Below the pieces are notes generated by a model. It worked only from the letters and a program-made list of their open reading frames with translations, was not told the origin of the DNA and made no database searches. DNA of 12,586 nt from Geosiphon pyriformis uo1. Taxonomy: Eukaryota; Fungi; Glomeromycota. Shown here in pieces: positions 1-12,586 of the stretch (its first letter is position 1; each line of letters starts with the position of its first letter). The translations under genes were made by a program, and so were the position numbers. The stretch spans positions 1-12,586 of the forward strand of contig JAAOMT010000335.1 of the NCBI GenBank assembly GCA_016748015.1. The letters are read 5' to 3'.

Positions 1-640
1 TAGATGGGATGGTGGTGTGGGCATATGGGTGGTAAGGGGGCTACATTGGGGTATAGAGGTGGATATGGTGGGATAATTGGGTATGGGGCATGTGGGCACA
101 TTTTGACATGTTTGGTCTGGGTCTGGGCATATGGGGCCACATGGGGAATCTTGGGTATAGTGTGATTGGGGCCACATCGTGGCTATGGGGTAGAATATGG
201 GCATATTGTGGTAGTATGGGGCCACATGGGCTACAATAGGGGATGGGCATATGGGGAATGGTTGTGGTATGGGCATATTGGGGACTCTGGTTTGAGAGGG
301 CTACAATGGGATATGGGCATAGGGGCTACAATTTGGTGTGGGTGGTGGTATTGTGGGATAGCGCATATTGGGTGGTATCTGGCGTGATATGGGTATTGGT
401 GGCAGGTGCCACATGGTGGTTAGGGTTGCCACATTGGGCATATCGTGAGTATGGGCCACATCTTGGCAGATATGAGCTACATAGTGGTATAATGGGACAT
501 CTAGGGCAACATCCTGTTGCATATGGGTATTGGATGCCACATAGGGCATATCGGGTGGTGTATATGGGTATAGGGCAATGGTTGGGATAGGGATAGGGTA
601 TAGTGGGATATGGGATACCTCTAGTGGCATAGGGACTACA
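1..640 (+). repeat. Distal end of the G/T-skewed arm (also shown at 10187-10826)
   Basis: Same vocabulary as 6830-10186. The first 60 nt contain 29 G, 16 T, 12 A and 3 C. Composition switches abruptly at ~640. Confidence 0.9.
463..493 (+). promoter_or_regulatory. Possible sigma70-type promoter upstream of the structured region
   Basis: TTGGCA (463-468), a 19-nt spacer and TATAAT (488-493) with the extended TG (TGGTATAAT), ~155 nt upstream of unit 1 on the RNA strand. It could be chance in this composition, and the host domain is unknown. Confidence 0.2.
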
Positions 641-649
641 TGGATACTC

Positions 650-3125
650 AGCCTCATGCTTTACACCATCATGGTGGATGGTAACCCGACTAACTCGTAA
701 GTCATTCCGAATTAGCCCATACTCTACCCGCCCCGGGTAGTACGGTTGTGGAAGGCTTCAGCATCCCAACCCTAACTTTCTATTTGCCCCTCGGCCGTAC
801 CAAACGGCCTGAGGGTACTGCTAAGGGTTCGCCTTTGGTTGAAACAAAGGGTACAACCCAAAAGCTATCGGATAGTACTCTGGTTAGGAGCCTATAAGGT
901 CCGATTTAAGTCACAACCTTGTAGCATAACCTCCCAAACCTATCCTATGAATTAGGAAATGGATAAGATGGTTGTTATAGGAAACTATAAGATTTGAGAT
1001 AGAGTGGTGGATATGGTTAGGAGCACATGGTTAGTACTAGAGACAGGTCCCATCAAACCTCTTACTTAACCAAACAATCCCCTCCATGAACTGGTAATCC
1101 ATAATTATGGGTAGTCTTAGCTTGTCAGTCTCCGCTGCGGATGGCAAGACCCGTAACATGGTACTATACCATTGCGGCCAACCAACTTACTTCAACAAGC
1201 CCCCCATAACCTGAAGTCAGATCCTTTCGGGAAACCGAATAGTCTTTCTAAAGGTCCTTCATGAACACTGTCTAGTGGGGTGCTGACCATGATGGTTACT
1301 CCATATCCATACAGTGATTCAACTGTGCACTCTTCCCAATACGTTACAAGGGGGTGTGTAAGGTATTGGATGGACCACGCTGTACTCTCCCCGAACTCCC
1401 AAAGTTCATAGGTACAGGGCCCATTCGACTTTAACACCTATACTCTTGAGCAGCTTAGATAGGTCCATAACTGAGTAGTACGTTGGTAATATTGGTACTT
1501 TCAAAGAATACCTCCTCCTAATCACAAACCTCCCAAACATTTGGACCCGAAGTTTATCCTTAGAATGGTGCTTTATTTGGTAGGCTTCTATGGGTTACCA
1601 TAACCACACTACACACACCAAACCAGTCATCACATCTCACCAGTGTATTGGGTGCCTAAAATTAGAAACAGGCATCCGATCATACCAACCCGATCCTCGG
1701 TCTATCCACAAAGGATAGGGCGGAACAGGTATGGCTAAGTAGCTTCTAGGATATACACCCCCAAGATGGATTGTTGTCCACGCTTTGGCATAGTTCGGTG
1801 GCATGGTCAGATTCCTATCCCAATAGGAACCCCCCCACCAACCGGTTATACCTACCACTATTGCTTTAGACATGGCCGTCCGGTACACTCCCTAGGGGTT
1901 AGGGTAATGTACACTTCGGCCGTGGACACATCGGGGTCCCTTCCTACACTGAGGTATGCTTAAAGGATTGAGGTATCCTTGGACGGCATGAAGGGCCACA
2001 CGTGTGGTCATATAACTCAGTTCAGCCTTCCCCACTATTCAATGGTTATTGTGGGAGAAAGGCTTAGCCTAATCCTACATTAACCTTAACTGGGGGTTAG
2101 GGTAAATGGGAATTGGACTCCGATCCACGTATATCCCTGTATCGCTACCCATCTTATCTGTCACAGCCAAGGAACCAGTACTCTTACCCTCTCCAAATAT
2201 GGATTGGGTGTAGACAGATTATTCGGACTTACAGTACTACTCTCTTCATAAAGAAGGAGTTCTACCATAACTCAGTTACCTATACTTTAAGCTATAGGGA
2301 TAAGCTCTTGTAGTAATAGACTTAAGCCAACCGAACTCCCGTCCTCCTAAGGAAGTGTCCAGGTGCATAGTAGGTAGTCCATTGGGATGGGAACCCCCCC
2401 ATAGCACGGCAGCTCTGAGTGGTAACCACCATTTAGACTGTACGTGTCTCTAGATCCCTCCATTTGGCCCCTAATACGTCTGGAAGGCGTCGAAGGGTAT
2501 CCTCCTCCCCAGGTAACACGAATCCCCTGTACAACACCCTTACCCCCCCCCAAATTGGGGGGATAAGAAAGGGATTGCGATTACTCGCCATTACCTTACT
2601 CTTGCCTAATCGATGATTAGGCTGGAGTGGACAGGCTGGTTGGCTATCCACCAACTGTAAGATTCCTCAGTAATGAGAACTCTTAAATACTCCCCTTACA
2701 ATGGGGTTGATATTTGACCAGTTGTGGAGAACCTACCACTTGTCCGGGTACAGGGCTCGTAATACCTGGGGGGAACTATGTACCACTGTAATGTTACCAT
2801 CCCCACACTGAACCATCTATTGTGGCCAGGCGTAGGCAGTGGGACTGTATCCTTAGCCTTAAAGCTATGGTTCATGTAGGAACCCACGTGGTTCCCTTCC
2901 TATTGCCAAACAACCCCATGATGATTACAGTAGGTTACATTGAACACACACTTCTGGACTAAGGTTTGAGAGGACCTATAGGGTAAACCTTACCATAGGC
3001 ACCTTAGTCCCTTCCCCGGGATAAAGGTTCATCCGGTACAAGTAGTGGGGATCTCCCAGACTTGCTCAGGAAAGGGGGGCTTGTGCTGTAGCTGCATGTA
3101 CCAAACCAACTGTACACGTCTACAT
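650..3125 (+). ncRNA. Large structured RNA unit, copy 1 (~2.48 kb; A part 650-2657, B part 2658-3125); family unassigned
   Basis: Dense hairpins: CCCTC-GGCCGT-accaa-ACGGCC-t-GAGGG 788-815, TTATAG-gaaa-CTATAA 975-990, TTCGG-gaaa-CCGAA ~1226-1239, CTCA-gtaa-TGAG 2666-2677. Long-range helices ATGGTAACCC 678-687 / GGGTTACCAT 1592-1601 and AGAGTG 1001-1006 / CACTCT 1328-1333. Colinear anchors are shared with copies 2 and 3. Confidence 0.72.
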
Positions 3126-5399
3126 AGCCTGCATGCCTTGACACCATCATGGTGGATGGTAACCCATCGTCGGGAACAATACGATCTATGCTTAGTACCA
3201 CCCCACCCCCTTTTTAATGGGGCGATTGACCTTGGTAGCCTAAAGCATCCCGTCTCAATACGAACTTGCCCCCCCCCTCGGGTACCAAACCCTGAGGTGG
3301 AGGACAGCCAAGGGTCCCTGTATAGTATGGCGCTATACCATATCGGAGCCCTATTGATTAGATAGGTACTAATGTACGATTTGTCTAACCTGGTAGCTAT
3401 ATCATGCTACACCTTACTTCCCTTGTTAAATACAGGGATAGGTAAGTATGGAATCTGATCTAGTTTTACTGCACTAGCAGATTAGAGATAAAGTGGTATG
3501 GTCAATCGGGTCCTAAATAGATTGAATCTATAAAGGATACCCAACCCCCCCCCCCCCCAACTTTAACCACCACTCTTCTCCTAACTATAAAGGGGGGATA
3601 TAGTAGGATAGGACCCCTCTACACTACCTAATGGGTACCCAAACCCATCCTGATGTGGAGGGCCCTATTCGACTTGAACATCAATTCTACTTCTATATTA
3701 TCCTGGTGGGTCCAACAGGTTAAATACAAGAATGGTATTATCCAATCACTATACCAAACAACTTCCAATCAAACCAATAACTAATATTCCCTTTGCACAC
3801 CTACCTCTTAGCTAGTGGGGGATCCTCTCTAAAGTATAGGAGGATAAGCTATTTGGAAAGTTGGGTACATAGTAATGACCTATCAAAGGGCTCTAAACTA
3901 GTTCCCAGTGCATATCCCAGTCATTAATCTAACCATAACCATTTAATATAACAATCTTGAATCCCTACTCAGCGGGGTCCTTGACGTGTCCATGCCATGA
4001 GGGATCATATGGTATATGGCCAGTGCCTGAGGCTCGTTCCACATATGGAATGAGGCAGGGATTAGGGTCATGGGAATTACCCCTTCCCACCCCAATATAC
4101 CTTTGGGTTCCTGCCACGTCCATAAGTACTCTTCTTAGAGTCTTAACCTACTCGCGGAGGGACCACCTGTAAAGGTAACCGGTACTTAATCAATAGGTTA
4201 TTGTACATTTGTTACCACCGATCCATGTTTTGATTGGGCGTCCTCCCATGGGTGGGGTTCGTCAGGATGGTCACATATGGCATACCTATCGATCATAAAG
4301 GTATTACTTACCTCTTGGTAGATAGTAAGCACCTCATATTGGCAAACTCGGACTTGGAACTGGGGCATGAGTAGGAACAACTTATACACTTGTAGATCCC
4401 TAACCTAGGGATCCCTGCCCCACACTTAGTATAGTTGGAGATATAAAGTATCAATCTACTTAAGCCCCCACACTCCCATGGCCTTAGTAGACCAACAGGG
4501 ATTTGAGTAGGTAGTCCATTTGTGTGGGACCCTACAGGATTCAGAGTCCTGTGAAGGTCCCCCCATTACAGGCTGTGTGTCCCCTGTGTCTCTATCCATT
4601 TAGGCCCCGAAGACGGTTGTCAACCGTCGCGACGGGTATCCTCTTTAACAGGCAACCCGTGTACCCTGTCCGCCATGAGAGAGGGCTCCATAACTGGGGC
4701 CCCCCAACTCTCCCTCACTACCTGGGGACCTAGGTAATGAGAGGCAATTCTACTTTATCTCACCCCTATAATTAGGGGCGGATCCCCCAATCTGGTAGTC
4801 ATACAAGGTGGGGAGTCTAATGGATAGGCTGGTGGCTCTACACCTACTGTAAGACACCCTAGTAATAGGTATTGTCCGGATCCCTTACCACCCCTTCCGG
4901 GTGATTAAAGGGGGCTTTTGGGAGATCTGATTATACCCTATAGCCGATACACAGTAGTGAATGACCTCCTGCCCGTCCGTGCAGGACAGGGTCTTGTAAG
5001 GCCTGTTATCAACTTTTATCACTGCCTGAATCCAAAGTATCCGTCTTAGGCGTTCCCATGAAGTGTGGGTATCCTAAGTGCAGTGGGATAGCAAGTTCTG
5101 GGACCATCAGCCTAATTCAGCTTCCCTGGCTCATAACCGGGGGGGTTCGGGATGGGATAATATATCCATCCAACTCTCAGTTATTACCCCTTTGGACCAT
5201 ACAGAATGGATCGTAGATGGTGCAAAGTCAACAGGAACTAAGGTCTACTTGGTGGATAGGACCCTGGTACCACTGACCTACCTCCAGAGCACTTGTGCTC
5301 TACCAATGATTAGGGTTCATGTTGTACATACTGTCTTGACAGTCTGCGGAGGGATAGGGGCTGATGGCTAAGCTGCAGTGTCCGAACCCTTGCACACCG
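3126..5399 (+). ncRNA. Large structured RNA unit, copy 2 (~2.27 kb; A part 3126-4850, B part 4851-5399)
   Basis: Exact 25-mer ACACCATCATGGTGGATGGTAACCC at 3141-3165 = 663-687. Exact 15-mer AGTAGGTAGTCCATT at 4506-4520 = 2369-2383. CCTATTCGACTTGAACA ~3664-3680 vs CCCATTCGACTTTAACA ~1420-1436. TGGATAGGCTGGTGGCT..ACTGTAAGA ~4821-4854 vs ~2628-2662. Covarying hairpin CCTA-gtaa-TAGG 4858-4869. Confidence 0.72.
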
Positions 5400-6812
5400 T
5401 CTTCATGCCCTAGGATAACTTACCAATCCTTGGTGTGATTGACTACCCCTGTCGTCCGATACTAATCGGACGGTCGGGAAACTGGGCTCCCATAGGAGCC
5501 CCAGATGGCAGGGATCCGCCTCCCACCACTCCCCCCGTTTGCCCACTCGGTGGTACCAATCCCCTGAGGGTGCGGGCGATAGCATTCTGTCTTTAAGACA
5601 GTTTGGCACTCTGCCATATCGTAGTCTGTATTGATTAGATACCTACTGAGGTCCGATTTAAGTCCACCTGTAATCCAGCCTGATTGTCCACCCCCCTTAT
5701 TATGAGGGAATGGGGAAATAGGATAGGTGACTGGTGTGACTGCCATAGCAGGTTGAGATAGGATGGCGTACTTATTACTATGGTAGGGCCAGGTCATAAA
5801 CAACCTCCCTCCCAACAGCTACTTCCTTAATCGACCCCCACCCCAACCCGGTCCCCCTCATGAGCCCCTTTACAAGCAGAGGTAACTGTACTTGTCTACC
5901 CATACACCAAGGGGGGTGGAAGATTCAGGTGTATGAGTATACGCTTACCCCCCCCCACACGGGGAGTGTGGTAGTCCGTTGACTGGCTATCCCCACCGGA
6001 GGTTCTAATGAGGTCCCATTCGATCGGTTGGGAATCGACTATATGGTAACTGATATTTGGTTTATGCCCATGGCCTCCCCAAACTATCATAGAAGATAGC
6101 CCTTTTACCCAAACCATCCTTTCCATAGCCTAACAGGAGGTGTTATATTCTGGTAGGACCATTATGGACTCCCCACTGACCTTAAACGGTCACGGGTCCA
6201 GGACCCTATCGACTTTAACATAAGGACAACTCTCTGATCCCCTAAGGTCCTAGGAACTATCACATATTTAAATGTCTGGTAGGGGTAGGAAGATAAGGTC
6301 TAACAACCTGACAATAGTACCTTCTCAGAATAAGAACCCATTGTGCCCCCCCCTCACTTTGGAGGTATGGATATGTAAGGATATCCAAGTAGGTGAGTGG
6401 TATCAATAGCCCCAAACACCGGGCCCTAGGAATATAACAGCCTAGTGCCTATGCTAATCCTCATCCGAAAGGGATCCTACTATCATGTGGTAGTCGCCCC
6501 CCAACCACCATACCAAACCTTATACACCTCATAATCCCCTAGCCTCTCTACGTTGGTATACTATCACAGGTTTATACTGAGGCCTTTCCCTACAGTACAT
6601 CTAAGGAAGTGGCAAATGTAGTGGCTGGGTAGCACTCCTTTCCCAATGGAATCCGGGGTACCCCAGAACCTGGGATCTCCTACAGCCTCATGGCGCATTG
6701 TGTTGCTACCCCTGTACAGATACCTTGTTGGGTAAACCCTCTATCATAAGGGAAGATCCTTTACACAGTACTTATGGTTATTGTGGGCTTTAGGCCCCCT
6801 ACCTAGCCGTAT
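5400..6812 (+). ncRNA. Large structured RNA unit, copy 3 (~1.4 kb; A part only, shortened middle, no B part)
   Basis: Exact 16-mer AGGTCCGATTTAAGTC at 5649-5664 = 897-912. TATTGATTAGATA 5629-5641 = 3352-3364. CCCTATCGACTTTAACA ~6204-6220. CTAAGGAAGTG 6601-6611 = 2347-2357. CCCCTGTACA ~6709 vs ~2524. Closing helix GGCTGGGTAG 6623-6632 / CTACCTAGCC 6799-6808. Confidence 0.65.
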
Positions 6813-6829
6813 AAAGGCATATTTAAGGT

Positions 6830-9800
6830 AGTCATATGGTGGGATATAATGGGACATGGTGGAATATAGAGGGTGGTTATGGGGTATAGTGGATATAGGT
6901 ATAGTGGATGGGGTAGAATAGTGGGGCCACAGGGGGCATTTGTATATGGTGGCCACATTTTGTGCCACATGGTGGAATGGGAATACCTCTTGGTGGGCAT
7001 AAGGGTTGATATATAGGTCTAGGGACTACCTTTGGTTATATGGGCTACATAGGGTAGGGTCTAGGATACCACATGGGGATTCTAGAGGGTGATACATGGT
7101 GGCCTCTTTGTTGAAAGGTCCTTGTGTGCCACATCCGGGCATAGTGGTGAGGGATCTGGGGGTTAGATAGGGGTAGTGGGTGGTATTGTTGGGTAGTGGG
7201 TTCTTAGGGGCCACATGGGGCATTGGGTTGAGTGTCCCATCTTGTGGGTAGAGGGGACATGGTTTGTAGTGGGGCCACTGGGCATATTGGAAATAGTGTT
7301 ATAGTGGAATATGGTAGGACATGGGCTATTGGGTGGGATAGATGGGACATATGGGTATGGGGCAGATAGGGACTATTGTGTAGAGGTATTGGGGTAGTAA
7401 TGGGCAGATGGTGGTAATAGTGGTTGATAGTGGGATATTTACTATTAGGGGCCACATACTGTGGCAGTTGGGGTTTGGTGGGATAATGGGCTACATTGTG
7501 GGATCTAGTGGGTGTATGGTGGGGATCTTTAGTATTTGGTGCCACATCGGGCAACATTGGGGCTACCTAGTGGGGTAGTGGTTCATAGTGGGTTAGTGGG
7601 CTATAGTGGGATAGTGGGGCCACACTGTGGCACATGGTTGGGATCCTGTGAATAGGGGATCTAGGGTATGGGGATGCCACATCCTGTTGCAGATGGGTTT
7701 GTATGGGCCACACATTTTGTGGTATTTGGGTAGTATGGGGCTACAGAGGGAATGGTTGTTGGGCTACCTATGGGGCATAGGGCTATATTGTGTGTGGTGG
7801 ATATGAGCTAGAGTGCTACATAGGGCATAGGGCATATGGGATAGTAGTCGGGGATGGGTCATGGGGCAGATAGGGGATATCTGGGTATATAGGGCATCTG
7901 GGATAGGTATAGTGGGATATCCTGGTATGGGACAGGATGGGTCAGGGTCATAGGGGTATGGTTGGGCCACATAGGGCATATGGGCATCATATGGTAGTTG
8001 TGGTATAGGGGCATATGGTGGGACATATTGGATGCCCCAGGGCATAAGGGGTAGAATATGACATCCTCTGGGATATTTGGAGTATGGGGCCACATATGGC
8101 ATATGGGTCTAGGGAATGGTTGGGATAGTGCCCATCTTGTTTGGCTGGTATTCTAGGATATCACATAGTGTGATTGGTGAGATGCCCCATCTCAGGGCAT
8201 AGTGGCTATTAGTGGAATATGTAATATAGTGGTGGCACATGGTTGGATAGGGATACCACACGGGCATATGGTATGATGGGTAGTGGGTAATAGGGTAGAG
8301 TGGTTATGGGACATCATGGGAGTTATGGGATGGGTAGGTATGGGTCTGTCTCATATCATGTGTGGTATGGTATAGGATGTCTCCTATGGGGCTCTGGTAC
8401 CTAGGGCTTGGTTATTAGTGTGCCACATAGGTAGATGGGCATAGGGAGGTAGAATGGGGGCAGATTGTGGATACCACTTGGTCTATTGGGTAGTGGCCCC
8501 TCTGGGCATGGGTAGGTCACATCTTGTGGTATATGGGCACATAGTGGAAGTGGTGGGGAATCTGGGCATATGGGTGGGATATAGTGCCACATCTTTGGAC
8601 ATCTGGGACATTAGGGATACCAACATCGTGGTATATTGGGATGGGGAAGGGATAGTGGTTATGGGTATGGTGGGTAGAATGGGTATGTGATTGCCCATTG
8701 GGCATAGGGAGGTCTAGGGGATAGGGAAGGGTGGTTAGGGGGATAGAGGCCACATTTGGATTCTGAGGGGCCCTGGGGGCCTCTGTTGATGTGTCACCTA
8801 TGGGACCTGTGTGGTAGAGGGTCTGGGCACATTTGGCATAGTGGGTGGGGTACTCTGGGCACATGGTCTGGTCTGGGTATCTCATGGGTTATGTGGCATC
8901 TTTGTATGGGTTATAGTGGATGCCCAGGGGGCAGATAGAGGTCTAGTGGGGCCCCTTTTTGGCCCCTTTTGTGGGATATCCTATGAGTATGGTGGTAGAT
9001 GGTGGGATAGTTTGATTAGGTGGCATATCCTATGGGATCTAGTGCCACATCCATGTTGCTTGGGAGGTGCCACATAGGGCTCCATAGGTATAGGTGGATA
9101 GGGGCTATTGTGGAAGATATTGGATACCACCTCTTGTGGCACATTGGGATGGTAGGGATCTAGGGCTAGAGGATATAGGATGCCACATGGGGCATAGTAG
9201 GACATTGGATGCCCCCATCATATGGGAATAGTGGTAGGTATAGGTTCTTGTGGTTATGGTTGATAGGGCTACATAGGGTATCTGGGTGTATGGCACATAA
9301 TTGGCCACATCCTGTGCATAGTGGCATCATGTTGGATGGAGCTATTGTTGGTAGAGTAGTGTAAGGGTTGGTAGAGTAGTGGTATAGGGTAATATGGGTC
9401 TGGGGCCCTAGTTGTGGTATCTTGTGGCACATGGTACATATGGTGGGATATGGTGGTAATATTGTGCCACCTGGCTATGGGCTACATCATGTGGGTCTGG
9501 TGTGGTATATGGGTAGAGGGGCATGGTGGATATATTGGGTATTGTTTGGTGCCACATCGGGCACATTGGTTATTAGGGTGCCCCATTGTGGGATCTGGGT
9601 TGGAGTGTCACTATTGTTTGCCACATCATGTTGCATATGGTGGATACATTTGGTCATGGGTCTGGGGCCCCTTTGGTTTTGGGGCCAATGGGGGTTGGGG
9701 GTGCAAGTGGGGGCCAATTTGGGTTTGGGGAATTGGTGTTGGGGGGACCAATTTGTGTGGGTTGGGGGGCCAATTTGGGTTGGGGGTAATTGTGTTTGGT

Positions 9801-10186
9801 GTCCAATGGTTGGGCCAGTTGAATTTGCGTTGAATTTGTGTTTGGGGACCAATTGGGGTTGGGCTAATTTGGTTTGGGGGGCCTATTTAGAATTTTGGGT
9901 GGGTTTGGGAATTTGGGTTTTGGCCTATTTGTGGGGCCAACTTGGGAATTTTGGGTGTCAATTGGGATGGGTTTGTGGCCAATTTGGAATTTGGATTGGC
10001 CATTGGTGTCAATTTTGATGGTGGTGGGCCTCTTGGGAATTTGGGTTGGGCACATTTGGTGGATATGGTAGAGTTTGGACATTGGGGATATGGGCGATTT
10101 GGTATTGGTGGGATAGGCAGTGGGCCACATGGGGCATATAAGTGATATGGTGGGATAGAGAGTGTGCCACATGTTGGATGTGGTGG
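6830..10186 (+). repeat. G/T-skewed low-complexity arm of dispersed short words; continues through the origin into 1-640 (~4 kb total)
   Basis: C is rare and mostly confined to the words GCCACAT, GCTACA, GGCACAT, GGGCATA, GGATCT and GGATAC. Roughly 50-60 GCCACA/GCTACA/GGCACA-type words by eye, all on one strand and in mixed reading frames. Longer recurrences include GGTGCCACATCGGGCA(A)CATTGG at ~7538 and ~9548. Confidence 0.9.
9680..10050 (+). repeat. Degenerate (CC/G)AATTTGGG / GTTTGGG repeat subdomain with dense G-runs
   Basis: AATT cores at 9716, 9731, 9750, 9772, 9788, 9822, 9833, 9851, 9866, 9891, 9910, 9947, 9960, 9981, 9988, 10011 and 10038, flanked by G-runs. The GCCACAT word is absent here. 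Confidence 0.8.
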
Positions 10187-12586
10187 TAGATGGGATGGTG
10201 GTGTGGGCATATGGGTGGTAAGGGGGCTACATTGGGGTATAGAGGTGGATATGGTGGGATAATTGGGTATGGGGCATGTGGGCACATTTTGACATGTTTG
10301 GTCTGGGTCTGGGCATATGGGGCCACATGGGGAATCTTGGGTATAGTGTGATTGGGGCCACATCGTGGCTATGGGGTAGAATATGGGCATATTGTGGTAG
10401 TATGGGGCCACATGGGCTACAATAGGGGATGGGCATATGGGGAATGGTTGTGGTATGGGCATATTGGGGACTCTGGTTTGAGAGGGCTACAATGGGATAT
10501 GGGCATAGGGGCTACAATTTGGTGTGGGTGGTGGTATTGTGGGATAGCGCATATTGGGTGGTATCTGGCGTGATATGGGTATTGGTGGCAGGTGCCACAT
10601 GGTGGTTAGGGTTGCCACATTGGGCATATCGTGAGTATGGGCCACATCTTGGCAGATATGAGCTACATAGTGGTATAATGGGACATCTAGGGCAACATCC
10701 TGTTGCATATGGGTATTGGATGCCACATAGGGCATATCGGGTGGTGTATATGGGTATAGGGCAATGGTTGGGATAGGGATAGGGTATAGTGGGATATGGG
10801 ATACCTCTAGTGGCATAGGGACTACATGGATACTCAGCCTCATGCTTTACACCATCATGGTGGATGGTAACCCGACTAACTCGTAAGTCATTCCGAATTA
10901 GCCCATACTCTACCCGCCCCGGGTAGTACGGTTGTGGAAGGCTTCAGCATCCCAACCCTAACTTTCTATTTGCCCCTCGGCCGTACCAAACGGCCTGAGG
11001 GTACTGCTAAGGGTTCGCCTTTGGTTGAAACAAAGGGTACAACCCAAAAGCTATCGGATAGTACTCTGGTTAGGAGCCTATAAGGTCCGATTTAAGTCAC
11101 AACCTTGTAGCATAACCTCCCAAACCTATCCTATGAATTAGGAAATGGATAAGATGGTTGTTATAGGAAACTATAAGATTTGAGATAGAGTGGTGGATAT
11201 GGTTAGGAGCACATGGTTAGTACTAGAGACAGGTCCCATCAAACCTCTTACTTAACCAAACAATCCCCTCCATGAACTGGTAATCCATAATTATGGGTAG
11301 TCTTAGCTTGTCAGTCTCCGCTGCGGATGGCAAGACCCGTAACATGGTACTATACCATTGCGGCCAACCAACTTACTTCAACAAGCCCCCCATAACCTGA
11401 AGTCAGATCCTTTCGGGAAACCGAATAGTCTTTCTAAAGGTCCTTCATGAACACTGTCTAGTGGGGTGCTGACCATGATGGTTACTCCATATCCATACAG
11501 TGATTCAACTGTGCACTCTTCCCAATACGTTACAAGGGGGTGTGTAAGGTATTGGATGGACCACGCTGTACTCTCCCCGAACTCCCAAAGTTCATAGGTA
11601 CAGGGCCCATTCGACTTTAACACCTATACTCTTGAGCAGCTTAGATAGGTCCATAACTGAGTAGTACGTTGGTAATATTGGTACTTTCAAAGAATACCTC
11701 CTCCTAATCACAAACCTCCCAAACATTTGGACCCGAAGTTTATCCTTAGAATGGTGCTTTATTTGGTAGGCTTCTATGGGTTACCATAACCACACTACAC
11801 ACACCAAACCAGTCATCACATCTCACCAGTGTATTGGGTGCCTAAAATTAGAAACAGGCATCCGATCATACCAACCCGATCCTCGGTCTATCCACAAAGG
11901 ATAGGGCGGAACAGGTATGGCTAAGTAGCTTCTAGGATATACACCCCCAAGATGGATTGTTGTCCACGCTTTGGCATAGTTCGGTGGCATGGTCAGATTC
12001 CTATCCCAATAGGAACCCCCCCACCAACCGGTTATACCTACCACTATTGCTTTAGACATGGCCGTCCGGTACACTCCCTAGGGGTTAGGGTAATGTACAC
12101 TTCGGCCGTGGACACATCGGGGTCCCTTCCTACACTGAGGTATGCTTAAAGGATTGAGGTATCCTTGGACGGCATGAAGGGCCACACGTGTGGTCATATA
12201 ACTCAGTTCAGCCTTCCCCACTATTCAATGGTTATTGTGGGAGAAAGGCTTAGCCTAATCCTACATTAACCTTAACTGGGGGTTAGGGTAAATGGGAATT
12301 GGACTCCGATCCACGTATATCCCTGTATCGCTACCCATCTTATCTGTCACAGCCAAGGAACCAGTACTCTTACCCTCTCCAAATATGGATTGGGTGTAGA
12401 CAGATTATTCGGACTTACAGTACTACTCTCTTCATAAAGAAGGAGTTCTACCATAACTCAGTTACCTATACTTTAAGCTATAGGGATAAGCTCTTGTAGT
12501 AATAGACTTAAGCCAACCGAACTCCCGTCCTCCTAAGGAAGTGTCCAGGTGCATAGTAGGTAGTCCATTGGGATGGGAACCCCCCC
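10187..12586 (+). repeat. Second copy of 1-2400 (wrap-around overlap of a circular contig)
   Basis: Start, end and all translated ORFs are identical to 1-2400. The overlap is a round 2,400 nt, which suggests it was added during windowing. Confidence 0.93.
10836..12586 (+). ncRNA. Wrap-around duplicate of the first 1.75 kb of structured unit 1
   Basis: Identical to 650-2400 at an offset of 10,186. Confidence 0.65.

Follow-up and report, generated by a model that had tools for sequence, protein, structure and literature searches.

We describe a 10,186-nt circle that carries three diverged head-to-tail copies of a non-coding unit, and we tentatively attribute it to tandem multiplication of a unit of ~2.3-2.5 kb in a high-copy DNA element. 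The window, that is, the whole stretch of 12,586 nt that was analysed, consists of this circle and a 2,400-nt overlap. The order round the circle is [A-V-H-B][A-V-H-B][A-tail][G/T array][~24-nt B-end stub], with A denoting the conserved ~450-900 nt at the start of the unit, V its variable middle, H the block called 'helix' and B the distal one. The circle is known only as contigs, which fit a tandem array equally well. One contig spans the left junction of the arm (5533-7165), and none among the eight contigs listed bridges the junction of the arm to unit 1.

Three A domains and two helix and B blocks

The units and their junction blocks are given below; strand is stated where one was assigned.
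637-3112: unit 1 (2476 nt), from alignments against shuffles and HMM matches at 637-1075 and 2273-3114; A 637-1530, variable middle 1531-2272, 'helix' 2273-2657, B 2658-3112
3113-5390: unit 2 (2278 nt), from segment alignments to unit 1 and HMM matches; A 3113-3775, variable middle 3776-4422, 'helix' 4423-4866, B 4867-5390
5391-6339: unit 3, A domain only, from alignments to units 1 and 2 and an A-domain HMM match at 5394-5845
663-687: junction block ACACCATCATGGTGGATGGTAACCC, copy 1, containing a 6-bp palindrome
3141-3165: junction block, copy 2, with 25/25 identity to 663-687
5418-5449: unit 3's diverged version of the junction block, with the palindrome ACCAA-TCC-TTGGT, from alignments
10187-12586: second copy of 1-2400, by exact identity, the circle being written past its own start

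Units 1 and 2 share the colinear segments 637-1017/3113-3502 (74%), 1328-1530/3571-3775 (73%) and 2273-3107/4423-5388 (70%). The last of these covers 782 columns with a score of 151 versus 36.4 ± 3.2 in 40 dinucleotide shuffles, confirming the preliminary description, in which copies 1 and 2 stay colinear right up to the next unit. B also aligns significantly on its own (2658-3112 versus 4867-5390; score 54, versus 27 ± 4.3 and at most 39 in shuffles; z 6.3). The five anchors that had been proposed for B1 and B2 were all found in place or at most one base off: GCAGTGGGA (2836/5080), ACTAAGGT (2958/5237) and AGCTGCA (3090/5371), which occur nowhere else in the circle, together with GGTTCAT (3026/5314) and GGGGCT (3076/5357).

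When controlled with shuffles, the alignments between units gave z values of 36 (units 1 and 2), 12.7 (units 1 and 3) and 17 (units 2 and 3), with ~70% identity in the alignable parts. Profile HMMs run over the circle detected exactly three A domains, two H+B domains and three junctions. Thus, the A domain (~450-900 nt) is found three times, starting at 637, 3113 and 5391, and the distal 'helix + B' (~840-970 nt) only twice, at 2273-3112 and 4423-5390. The three A domains are colinear and the three junctions are homologous and all in direct orientation, which is consistent with an ancestral multimer of ~2.3-2.5-kb units joined head to tail. The most conserved block sits at the unit junction, where 25/25 nt are identical in units 1 and 2 although the units are only ~70% alike.

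Both helix and B are missing from copy 3

The remainder of copy 3 and the far end of the arm are defined as follows.
6340-6830: unit 3 tail, unalignable, with no covariance model or HMM match
10823-10846 (= 637-660): B-end-like stub of ~24 nt at the far end of the arm, from the alignment of 637-687 with 3113-3165 and a three-way junction alignment

Copy 3 is homologous to copy 1 only over 5506-6339 (= 749-1530; 70%, z 12.7) and to copy 2 over 5357-5847 (= 3076-3561) and 6104-6233. It had been said to end just after closing a helix equivalent to 2369-2656, but no third helix was found by local alignment, six conserved blocks, a covariance model or a profile HMM. Copies 1 and 2 both carry five conserved helix-region blocks and the B-end block AGCTGCA, all six of which copy 3 lacks; the helix-region covariance model recovered copies 1 and 2 only (257-265 bits, the next match having 7.9 bits), and the helix+B profile HMM exactly two copies. 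By eye, 6826-6850 looked like the beginning of the helix block (GGTAGTC...), but this resemblance was discarded, as it scored -0.2 bits with the covariance model. Hence, the arm does not take the place of a third B alone, as first thought: with helix and B both missing from copy 3, the arm (6831-10822) and 490 unalignable nt stand in for the two together.

These 490 nt, the tail at 6340-6830, showed no significant similarity to copies 1 or 2 (z <= 1.5) and a fold equal to that of shuffles (z +0.36), and may correspond to the variable middle. The claim of a break at a helix or domain boundary relied on the absent helix, the homology of copy 3 fading at ~6340. Since copies 1 and 2 likewise stop resembling each other at 1530/3775, the counterpart of ~6340, this position marks the boundary between conserved and variable sequence and not a breakpoint. 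The true break of copy 3 is at 6830, a position that could correspond to the start of the helix block.

At the far end of the arm, likeness to the end of B begins at 637 (637-687 versus 3113-3165, 84.9%, E 8e-9), and only ~24 nt of it are left. A hairpin at 626-660 resembling the end of B had been described here. Its arms, GGCATAGG...CCTCATGCT, are indeed present, the B-end likeness starts within it and the MFE fold contains it; however, its stability does not exceed that of shuffles (z +0.54) and the end of B1 folds differently.

The G/T arm is a degenerate simple-repeat array

Two features belong to the arm.
6831-10822 (circle: 6831-10186 + 1-636), + as the G-rich strand: G/T arm, 3992 nt, from composition, skew and periodicity
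9660-10060, + strand: sub-array within the arm, built of another kind of repeat with TTGGG / CCAAT words, from tandem repeats of period 18-50

The arm (A 0.205, C 0.119, G 0.379, T 0.297; GC skew +0.37 to +0.66) is a degenerate array of ~9-10-nt G-rich repeats, with a 9-10-nt periodicity, few recurring 8-mers and many short tandem arrays. G-quadruplex motifs number 18 versus 9.3 ± 2.5 in shuffles. In the sub-array, TTGGG occurs 8-11 times per 200 nt versus 0-4 times elsewhere.

Aligned as written, arm and units showed no similarity. The idea that hypermutation (A>G, C>T) had turned a unit copy into the arm was rejected, given purine/pyrimidine-coded z values of -0.6 to -1.4 in a comparison of low power whose control, units 1 and 2, reached only z 2.9. 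Complementarity to the units was also rejected (reverse-complement alignment, z -0.1 to -1.0), as was a connection of the arm repeats with the B2-end motif GGGATAGGGGCT that had been noticed by eye (B2 versus arm, score 28 versus 32 ± 2.9). Regarding its folding, the local energy of the arm in 300-nt windows equals that of shuffles (z about 0). Being unrelated to the units and folding like shuffled sequence, the arm is no 'scaffold', and the 'control or scaffold arm' of the preliminary description finds no backing in similarity, complementarity or energy. It probably expanded through slippage of a G-rich motif of 9-10 nt.

Coding sequences and known RNAs

The longest ORF in the circle has 198 aa and lies within the skewed arm, those in the units having at most 127 aa; under genetic code 4 the longest has 253 aa, likewise in the arm. 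Pfam gave no family at cut-off for the 140 stop-to-stop ORFs of at least 30 aa in the units, and 0 families for the six read-through frames of the whole circle, a search that rRNA or heavily edited pieces could escape. Hidden coding, through code 4 or with all stops read through, was therefore rejected, as nothing was found. A mirror-image (reversed) synthetic standard was discarded too, as the reversed sequence contains no tRNA and no long ORF, the longest having 175-181 aa. Rfam 15 returned 0 matches at gathering score and 0 at E<=5 on both strands, with neither a self-cleaving ribozyme (hammerhead, hairpin, HDV-like, twister and others) nor the conserved central region of pospiviroids, and a tRNA scan returned 0. 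The mtDNA mode of ARAGORN made nine calls, regarded as false positives because this mode over-calls. Neither sigma-70 promoter-like sites (13 versus 18.4 ± 4.3) nor terminator-like sites (9 versus 8.6 ± 3.4) were enriched, and 0 of the 9 latter lie on the - strand.

RNA folding and word usage

Among the conserved-structure tests, one was positive and five were negative. Compared with column shuffles, RNAalifold energies gave z -7.7 for the helix block and -5.5 for the A domain, with 25 compensated pairs versus 16 ± 3.3 and 17 versus 8.5 ± 2.7, respectively. The helix block favours the + strand (z -7.8 versus -4.4), and GNRA tetraloops make up 6 of 41 on + and 1 of 41 on -. By eye, several hairpins with different stems are seen at the same aligned sites. 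Predicted pairs of single units, projected onto another unit, were kept no more than in permuted controls, and hairpin projection between units did no better than slid-partner controls. Coincidence of hairpin sites between units gave P 0.05-0.49, and a model of units 1 and 2 scored the held-out unit 3 with 30.4 bits without structure versus 10.4 bits with the RNAalifold consensus structure. These negative tests have low power because the MAFFT alignments (~70% identity, many gaps) misplace stems. In 300-nt windows, most fold z values lie between -2.5 and +2.6, and z <= -3.5 was reached in only 3 of 34 + strand windows. We infer that short sequence blocks are conserved, and not folds.

The word usage of the circle is unusual, with A4 runs (2 versus 21 expected) and T4 runs (6 versus 21 expected) strongly depleted. 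CpG is short (0.39 in the units, 0.07 in the arm), the units show no excess of TpG/CpA (TG 1.03, CA 0.95), and UpA is in excess (1.3-1.4). C runs reach 14.

Relatives and sequencing runs

A blastn search of 650-6830 against phage and plasmid collections gave no match. Four motif patterns gave 0, 3, 0 and 0 loci in IMG/VR, and eight motif loci were found in JGI metagenome contigs and five in GTDB genome contigs. The three IMG/VR loci and 12 of the 13 JGI/GTDB loci match the circle by BLAST only over the motif (<=29 nt), and the thirteenth, L015, has no BLAST match to it; we took all of these as chance. The collections searched (phage, plasmid, IMG/VR, JGI, GTDB) contain no record of the window itself, and no relative was found in them. 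Literature searches turned up no description of such an element, which is not proof of absence.

The circle is present in one of three listed runs of one sample, a run whose kind was guessed, and no RNA run is listed as containing it; the other two runs of that sample contain next to none of the circle's words, which is no proof of absence. In the run with the circle, contigs of 1910, 618, 1342, 5060 and 2217 nt match the circle only in 30-67-nt blocks of 83-100% identity, at depths of 120-196 versus 125-150 for the units. A separate 54-nt contig identical to 2630-2683 has a depth of 385, ~2.6x that of the contig carrying unit 1, and this excess suggests that the stretch also occurs on other molecules. 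Arm-like G/T sequence is also found on other contigs of this run, at joints and as inserted letters.

Origin of the circle

Our favoured reading, tandem multiplication in a high-copy DNA element, is a tentative one. The unit would have multiplied head to tail, by unequal recombination or as a rolling-circle concatemer, which fit the data alike, and then diverged to ~70%. Copy 3 would have lost H and almost the whole of B, or never received them, and a 4-kb slippage array of a G-rich motif would fill their place. The short conserved blocks (for example the 25-nt junction block and the 54-nt 2630-2683) are predicted to act in cis, for instance in replication or processing, with each unit carrying its own set, and the G-rich strand of the arm would adopt G-quadruplexes or R-loops. 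The element, seen so far in contigs, is likely DNA and not a folded RNA, and would be either a tandem array or one of a family of circles related to each other. Against this reading, the RNAalifold result with its compensated pairs points to conserved folds, the sharp A4/T4 avoidance is not accounted for by plain repeat DNA, and a third H+B may never have existed. One could argue that the arm is ancestral, that copy 3 was always without helix and B, and that only 'end of B + A domain' was duplicated a third time with nothing replaced. We consider this somewhat unlikely, although copy 3 is homologous only over 5357-6339, neither tail nor arm has any trace of H or B, and the arm-like sequence on other contigs implies that the family may regularly include arms. 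The ~24-nt stub fits deletion or replacement in a full copy, and equally an arm that was always upstream of the junction.

It is also unlikely that the 10.2 kb are one period of a chromosomal satellite, a tandem array of diverged ~2.4-kb monomers and a G-rich minisatellite closed by the assembler and not self-replicating. Head-to-tail monomers at ~70% identity have the look of higher-order repeats, and the high depth with several related variants at similar depth, the lack of any gene found, the strong CpG shortage and a circularity drawn from contigs all agree with it. However, methyl-C decay should leave a TpG/CpA excess, and none accompanies the CpG shortage of the units; A/T runs, which satellites often contain, are avoided; and two other runs of the same sample are nearly devoid of the circle's words, albeit with the caveat given above. 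Distinctly doubtful is a protein-free circular replicon family from an unsampled lineage, be it an organelle chromosome of the minicircle type or a viroid-like agent of giant size, in which each ~2.4-kb unit would carry its own cis-acting blocks, the G-quadruplex-prone arm would serve priming or maintenance, and the ban on A4/T4 would let a run-sensitive polymerase read round both strands. Finally, we regard as improbable a giant protein-free RNA replicon or large structured RNA, with units as folded domains, the junction block as the site where a rolling-circle multimer is processed or ligated, and avoidance of U/A runs preventing termination by a host polymerase on either strand. The RNAalifold energies and excess of compensated pairs, the + strand preference of the helix block, the GNRA loops, the hairpins at shared sites, the rarity of A4 runs, the lack of terminator-like sites on the - strand, the conserved block at the junction and the presence in one of three runs all speak for it. 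Nevertheless, no ribozyme or other Rfam family was found even at E<=5, most 300-nt windows fold like shuffles, five conserved-structure tests were negative, UpA is in excess, and 10,186 nt is twice the longest viroid-like circle (4,705 nt, coding) given in the available part of one preprint.

This 10-kb circle is hard to place: no gene and no known RNA family was found in it, and the viral, metagenome and prokaryote collections searched yielded no relative. If self-replicating, it would widen the size range of protein-free replicons or hint at a new multipartite organelle genome. If a satellite array, it would be ordinary, yet a clean higher-order repeat with odd word usage (A4/T4 avoided, almost no CpG, C runs to 14). 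What is useful here is the correction that three A domains accompany only two helix+B blocks, and that the arm is a simple-repeat array and not a folded scaffold.

Comparison with known systems

In kinetoplast minicircles, the conserved regions are in direct orientation round the circle, as if derived from an oligomer, and so are the three junction/A blocks here. Conserved sequence block 3 of minicircles is the universal 12-mer GGGGTTGGTGTA, which is absent from our circle at 0-1 mismatch and occurs five times at 2 mismatches versus 4.98 ± 2.28 by chance. A-tract bends are typical of minicircles and A runs are expected in their guide regions, whereas the circle avoids A runs; its units measure ~2.4 kb and theirs 0.1-0.4 kb. 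Both systems comprise sequence classes with only short blocks in common (here 30-67 nt between contigs). The circle also resembles minicircles in its likely high copy number, its lack of protein genes and a size at about their range, which the accessible parts of PMC8277381 and PMC11769408 give as 0.5-10 kb for these gene-less, high-copy molecules.

With satellite higher-order repeats, the circle shares diverged tandem monomers (~70%), short conserved boxes, the lack of genes and adjoining simple-repeat arrays, but it differs in its very long monomer, its avoidance of A/T runs, the reported closed circle and a 4-kb block with extreme strand skew. Viroid-like and Obelisk-type RNAs are likewise circular, with a multimer logic and a junction, their cleavage-site position, that carries the most conserved element. 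In contrast to viroid-like RNAs, the circle has no ribozyme (Rfam) and is not rod-like by local energies (300-nt windows), and its 10 kb exceed the about 0.25-4.7 kb stated for viroid-like and Obelisk RNAs in the portions of the sources consulted. Obelisks, described there as circles of about 1 kb encoding Oblin-1, are set apart by size and ORF length from a circle of 10,186 nt with no ORF >198 aa.

Diplonemid mitochondrial chromosomes are circles of 2-12 kb made mostly of non-coding repeats, according to the available part of PMC7049700, and the circle agrees with them in both respects. Their gene-piece cassette was not found in it (Pfam, ORFs and read-through frames), and their constant regions are, in the same partial source, >90% identical over >100 bp from one chromosome to another, whereas the circle's relatives share only 30-67-nt blocks of 83-100%. 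As for the arm, it is similar to G-rich minisatellites, telomere-like arrays and R-loop-prone switch-like regions in that its repeats are short and degenerate, one strand is rich in G, G-quadruplex motifs are dense and words like TTGGG and TTAGGG occur. Unlike them, it forms no clean tandem array, lies within a circle, extends over 4 kb and contains 30% T and 20% A.

Composition and units of the circle

By sequence comparison, positions 1-2400 and 10187-12586 are identical, which makes the window a 10,186-nt circle continued past its start. The circle has two compositional parts, and the switch is abrupt at both ends of the G/T-rich arm (6831-10822, the last position being 636 on the circle). 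The part at ~637-6830 has near-equal amounts of the four bases, with slightly more C than G, and the + strand of the arm has frequencies of A 0.205, C 0.119, G 0.379 and T 0.297. GC skew ranges from +0.37 to +0.66 in the arm versus -0.03 to -0.24 outside it.

We compared the three units (U1, U2 and U3) by local alignment, setting the score of each pair against 40 shuffles.

Similarity between units (U1, 637-3112; U2, 3113-5390; U3, 5391-6830)
U1 with U2: score 151; shuffles 36.4±3.2; z 36
U1 with U3: score 104; shuffles 36.7±5.3; z 12.7
U2 with U3: score 114; shuffles 37.8±4.4; z 17.4

By this measure of sequence similarity, U1, U2 and U3 are related to one another. Each unit starts with a conserved part, A, which may be followed by a variable middle (V), a 'helix' block (H) and a distal block (B). 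Colinear segments were mapped by iterative masking, and A, helix+B and the junctions were searched with profile HMMs at full sensitivity.

Colinear segments and domains (identity where given)
637-1017 with 3113-3502: U1/U2 segment, 74%
1328-1530 with 3571-3775: U1/U2 segment, 73%
2273-3107 with 4423-5388: U1/U2 segment, 70%
749-1530 with 5506-6339: U1/U3 segment, 70%
3076-3561 with 5357-5847: U2/U3 segment, uninterrupted through the unit junction
3562-3688 with 6104-6233: U2/U3 segment
637-1075, 3113-3559, 5394-5845: A domains, exactly three by profile HMM
2273-3114, 4423-5388: helix+B domains, exactly two by profile HMM

The profile HMMs also found three unit junctions. The variable middles (1531-2272 and 3776-4422) could not be aligned, not even between U1 and U2. 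The resulting layout is [A-V-H-B][A-V-H-B][A-tail, 490 nt][arm, 3,992 nt][B end, ~24 nt]. Over 352 three-way columns, U3 was the odd one in 73, U1 in 72 and U2 in 51, a pattern that reflects branch lengths and not the order of duplication.

Besides, each of the three A domains carries a hairpin (787-815, 3276-3297 and about 5540-5570) in which the loop GTACCAA(A/T)C is conserved and the stems differ. GGGGTTAGGGTAA, a telomere-like word, is found in the variable middles of U1 (two occurrences, 1895-1907 and 2093-2105) and U2 (one occurrence, with two changes, 4058-4070), and is absent from U3.

The third copy and the arm

According to the preliminary description, copy 3 continues through the helix equivalent to 2369-2656 and the arm takes the place of a third B. 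Every test of this helix came out negative. The copy 3 tail (6340-6830) gave no significant alignment with the remainder of U1 or U2 (z at most 1.5). All five helix-region blocks common to U1 and U2 are missing from copy 3, as is AGCTGCA, the block at the end of B. A covariance model for the helix region recognised U1 and U2 only (257-265 bits, with the next match at 7.9 bits), the profile HMM matched no third helix+B copy, and the tail folds no better than shuffles (z +0.36). Since copy 3 lacks the helix in all tests, the layout ends in [A-tail][arm][B end], and arm and tail together stand in for V+H+B or H+B, not for B alone. The homology of copy 3 fades at ~6340, the point (1530/3775) where the likeness between U1 and U2 also ends, so this position is a boundary between conserved and variable sequence and not a breakpoint.

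The proposed colinearity of B1 and B2 held: B alone scores 54 versus 27±4.3 (z 6.3), and the five anchor words lie at the cited positions or at most 1 base off, three of them occurring nowhere else in the circle. The resemblance of the far end of the arm to the end of B is real, although short. A 25-nt block, ACACCATCATGGTGGATGGTAACCC, occurs in identical form at 663 and 3141, and the likeness extends ~24 nt upstream, to 637. The small hairpin noted at 626-660 is part of the minimum-energy fold, with a stability no greater than that of shuffles (z +0.54), and the end of B1 folds differently.

The arm did not resemble the units, whether compared directly, in purine/pyrimidine code or as reverse complement. 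It has a small vocabulary (GTGGGATA, TGCCACAT, GGGCATAT and similar words), a periodicity of 9-10 nt and many short tandem arrays. Positions 9660-10060 form a distinct sub-array of TTGGG/CCAAT(T)-type repeats with periods of 18-50, outside of which GGGCATA/GCCACAT words are found instead. A role as scaffold had been suggested for the arm, but its local folding energies are no different from dinucleotide shuffles (z -1.9 to +2.6), which leaves a scaffold helix without support. Its + strand holds 18 non-overlapping canonical G-quadruplex motifs versus 9.3±2.5 in shuffles (maximum 16), and its other strand holds none.

Coding content, word usage and RNA folding

The longest ORF, of 198 aa, lies within the skewed arm, where composition makes stop codons rare; under code 4 the longest (253 aa) is again in the arm. 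None of the 140 stop-to-stop ORFs (30 aa or longer) on both strands of 560-6900 reached the Pfam cut-off, the four weak matches (E 0.005-0.075) all falling under it, and reading all six frames of the complete circle through every stop yielded no Pfam family. Rfam gave no match at gathering scores or at E≤5, and ARAGORN found no tRNA in the window. Reversing the sequence did not raise its coding content. Hence, ORF, Pfam, Rfam and tRNA searches found no encoded product in the window.

CpG is scarce, with an observed/expected ratio of 0.39 for the units and 0.07 for the arm. The units also show GpC 0.55, CC 1.5, GG 1.67 and TA 1.3, with no excess of TpG/CpA. Animal mitochondrial DNA has low CpG, high CC/GG and normal-to-high TpA. 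A and T runs of at least four are sharply depleted: those of A number 2 in the units (21 expected) and 0 in the arm (5.6 expected), and those of T number 6 (21 expected) and 10 (22 expected), respectively. Runs of exactly three occur about as often as expected, and the longest C runs reach 14. All nine terminator-like sites, each a hairpin plus a run of T, belong to the + strand. RNA polymerase III termination has a sharp limit at four T.

Tests for a folded RNA gave mixed results that, taken together, speak rather against it. RNAalifold consensus energies are below those of column-shuffled alignments in the helix block (z -7.7) and the A domain (z -5.5), and compensated pairs exceed shuffles in the helix block (25 versus 16±3.3), the A domain (17 versus 8.5±2.7) and B (26 versus 16.6±3.2). 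In the helix block the + strand outperforms the - strand, and several strong hairpins share an aligned site across units, with differing stems. Against this, pairs predicted from a single unit were kept in another no more often than with permuted partners (P 0.48-0.99), projected hairpin stems kept 32-40% of changed pairs, as many as with slid partners, and the coincidence of hairpin sites between units was not significant (P 0.05-0.49). In a single test on the held-out U3, a model of U1 and U2 gave 30.4 bits with sequence only and 10.4 with the consensus structure. The power of all these negative tests is lowered by the poor alignment of changed stems.

Relatives and sequencing runs

No relative of the circle was found in phage and plasmid collections, in IMG/VR with four motif patterns, or in JGI metagenome contigs and GTDB genomes. 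Three IMG/VR motif loci were rejected because BLAST matched the circle over the motif only, as were 13 JGI/GTDB loci, 12 with such a match and one with none.

Of the three listed runs, one contains the circle (0.97 of the sampled words), and the two others, from the same sample, have next to none of these words. Contigs of the holding run have a mean length of 74 nt and those of the two others one of about 220 nt, a difference suggestive of another library type. One of its contigs spans 5533-7165 without a difference, so the junction between unit 3 and the arm is real in this assembly. The junction between arm and unit 1, which sits inside a 21-nt tandem repeat, is bridged by none among the contigs listed.

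In the holding run, contigs carrying the units have a depth of 125-150. Five others (1910, 618, 1342, 5060 and 2217 nt; depth 120-196) match short blocks only.

Blocks of the circle matched by other contigs
2467-2533: about 83-87% identity
2718-2768
3137-3166

A further contig, 54 nt long and identical to 2630-2683, has a depth of 385 versus about 150 for its flanks, which suggests that this stretch is exactly common to other molecules. The run also contains contigs with arm-like G/T sequence in differing arrangements. Together with the short-block contigs, these make the circle part of a family of related units of similar abundance in one sample.

Nature of the circle and known systems

Beyond the layout, which the comparisons show, we propose that a non-coding unit of ~2.3-2.5 kb was multiplied head to tail and that the copies then diverged. 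The third would have come to lack its distal part, and a G-rich array of simple repeats may have grown there by slippage. For the short blocks that remained identical while the rest diverged to about 70% identity, we predict a role as cis-acting sites. As to the nature of the circle, judged from contigs alone, we tentatively rank a free, minicircle-like circle first, a chromosomal satellite period second and an RNA last.

When compared to known kinds, the circle does not match viroid-like circles in ribozymes, fold or size (4,705 nt for the longest one described in a preprint). No gene-piece cassette of the diplonemid type was found, by Pfam on ORFs or in six read-through frames. The circle also fails the test for the kinetoplast minicircle 12-mer and has no A tracts. 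On these results, we file it under no family. The closest architectures are those of satellite higher-order repeats and of kinetoplast minicircles with repeated conserved regions, the latter with sizes stated as 0.5-10 kb (PMC8277381, PMC11769408).
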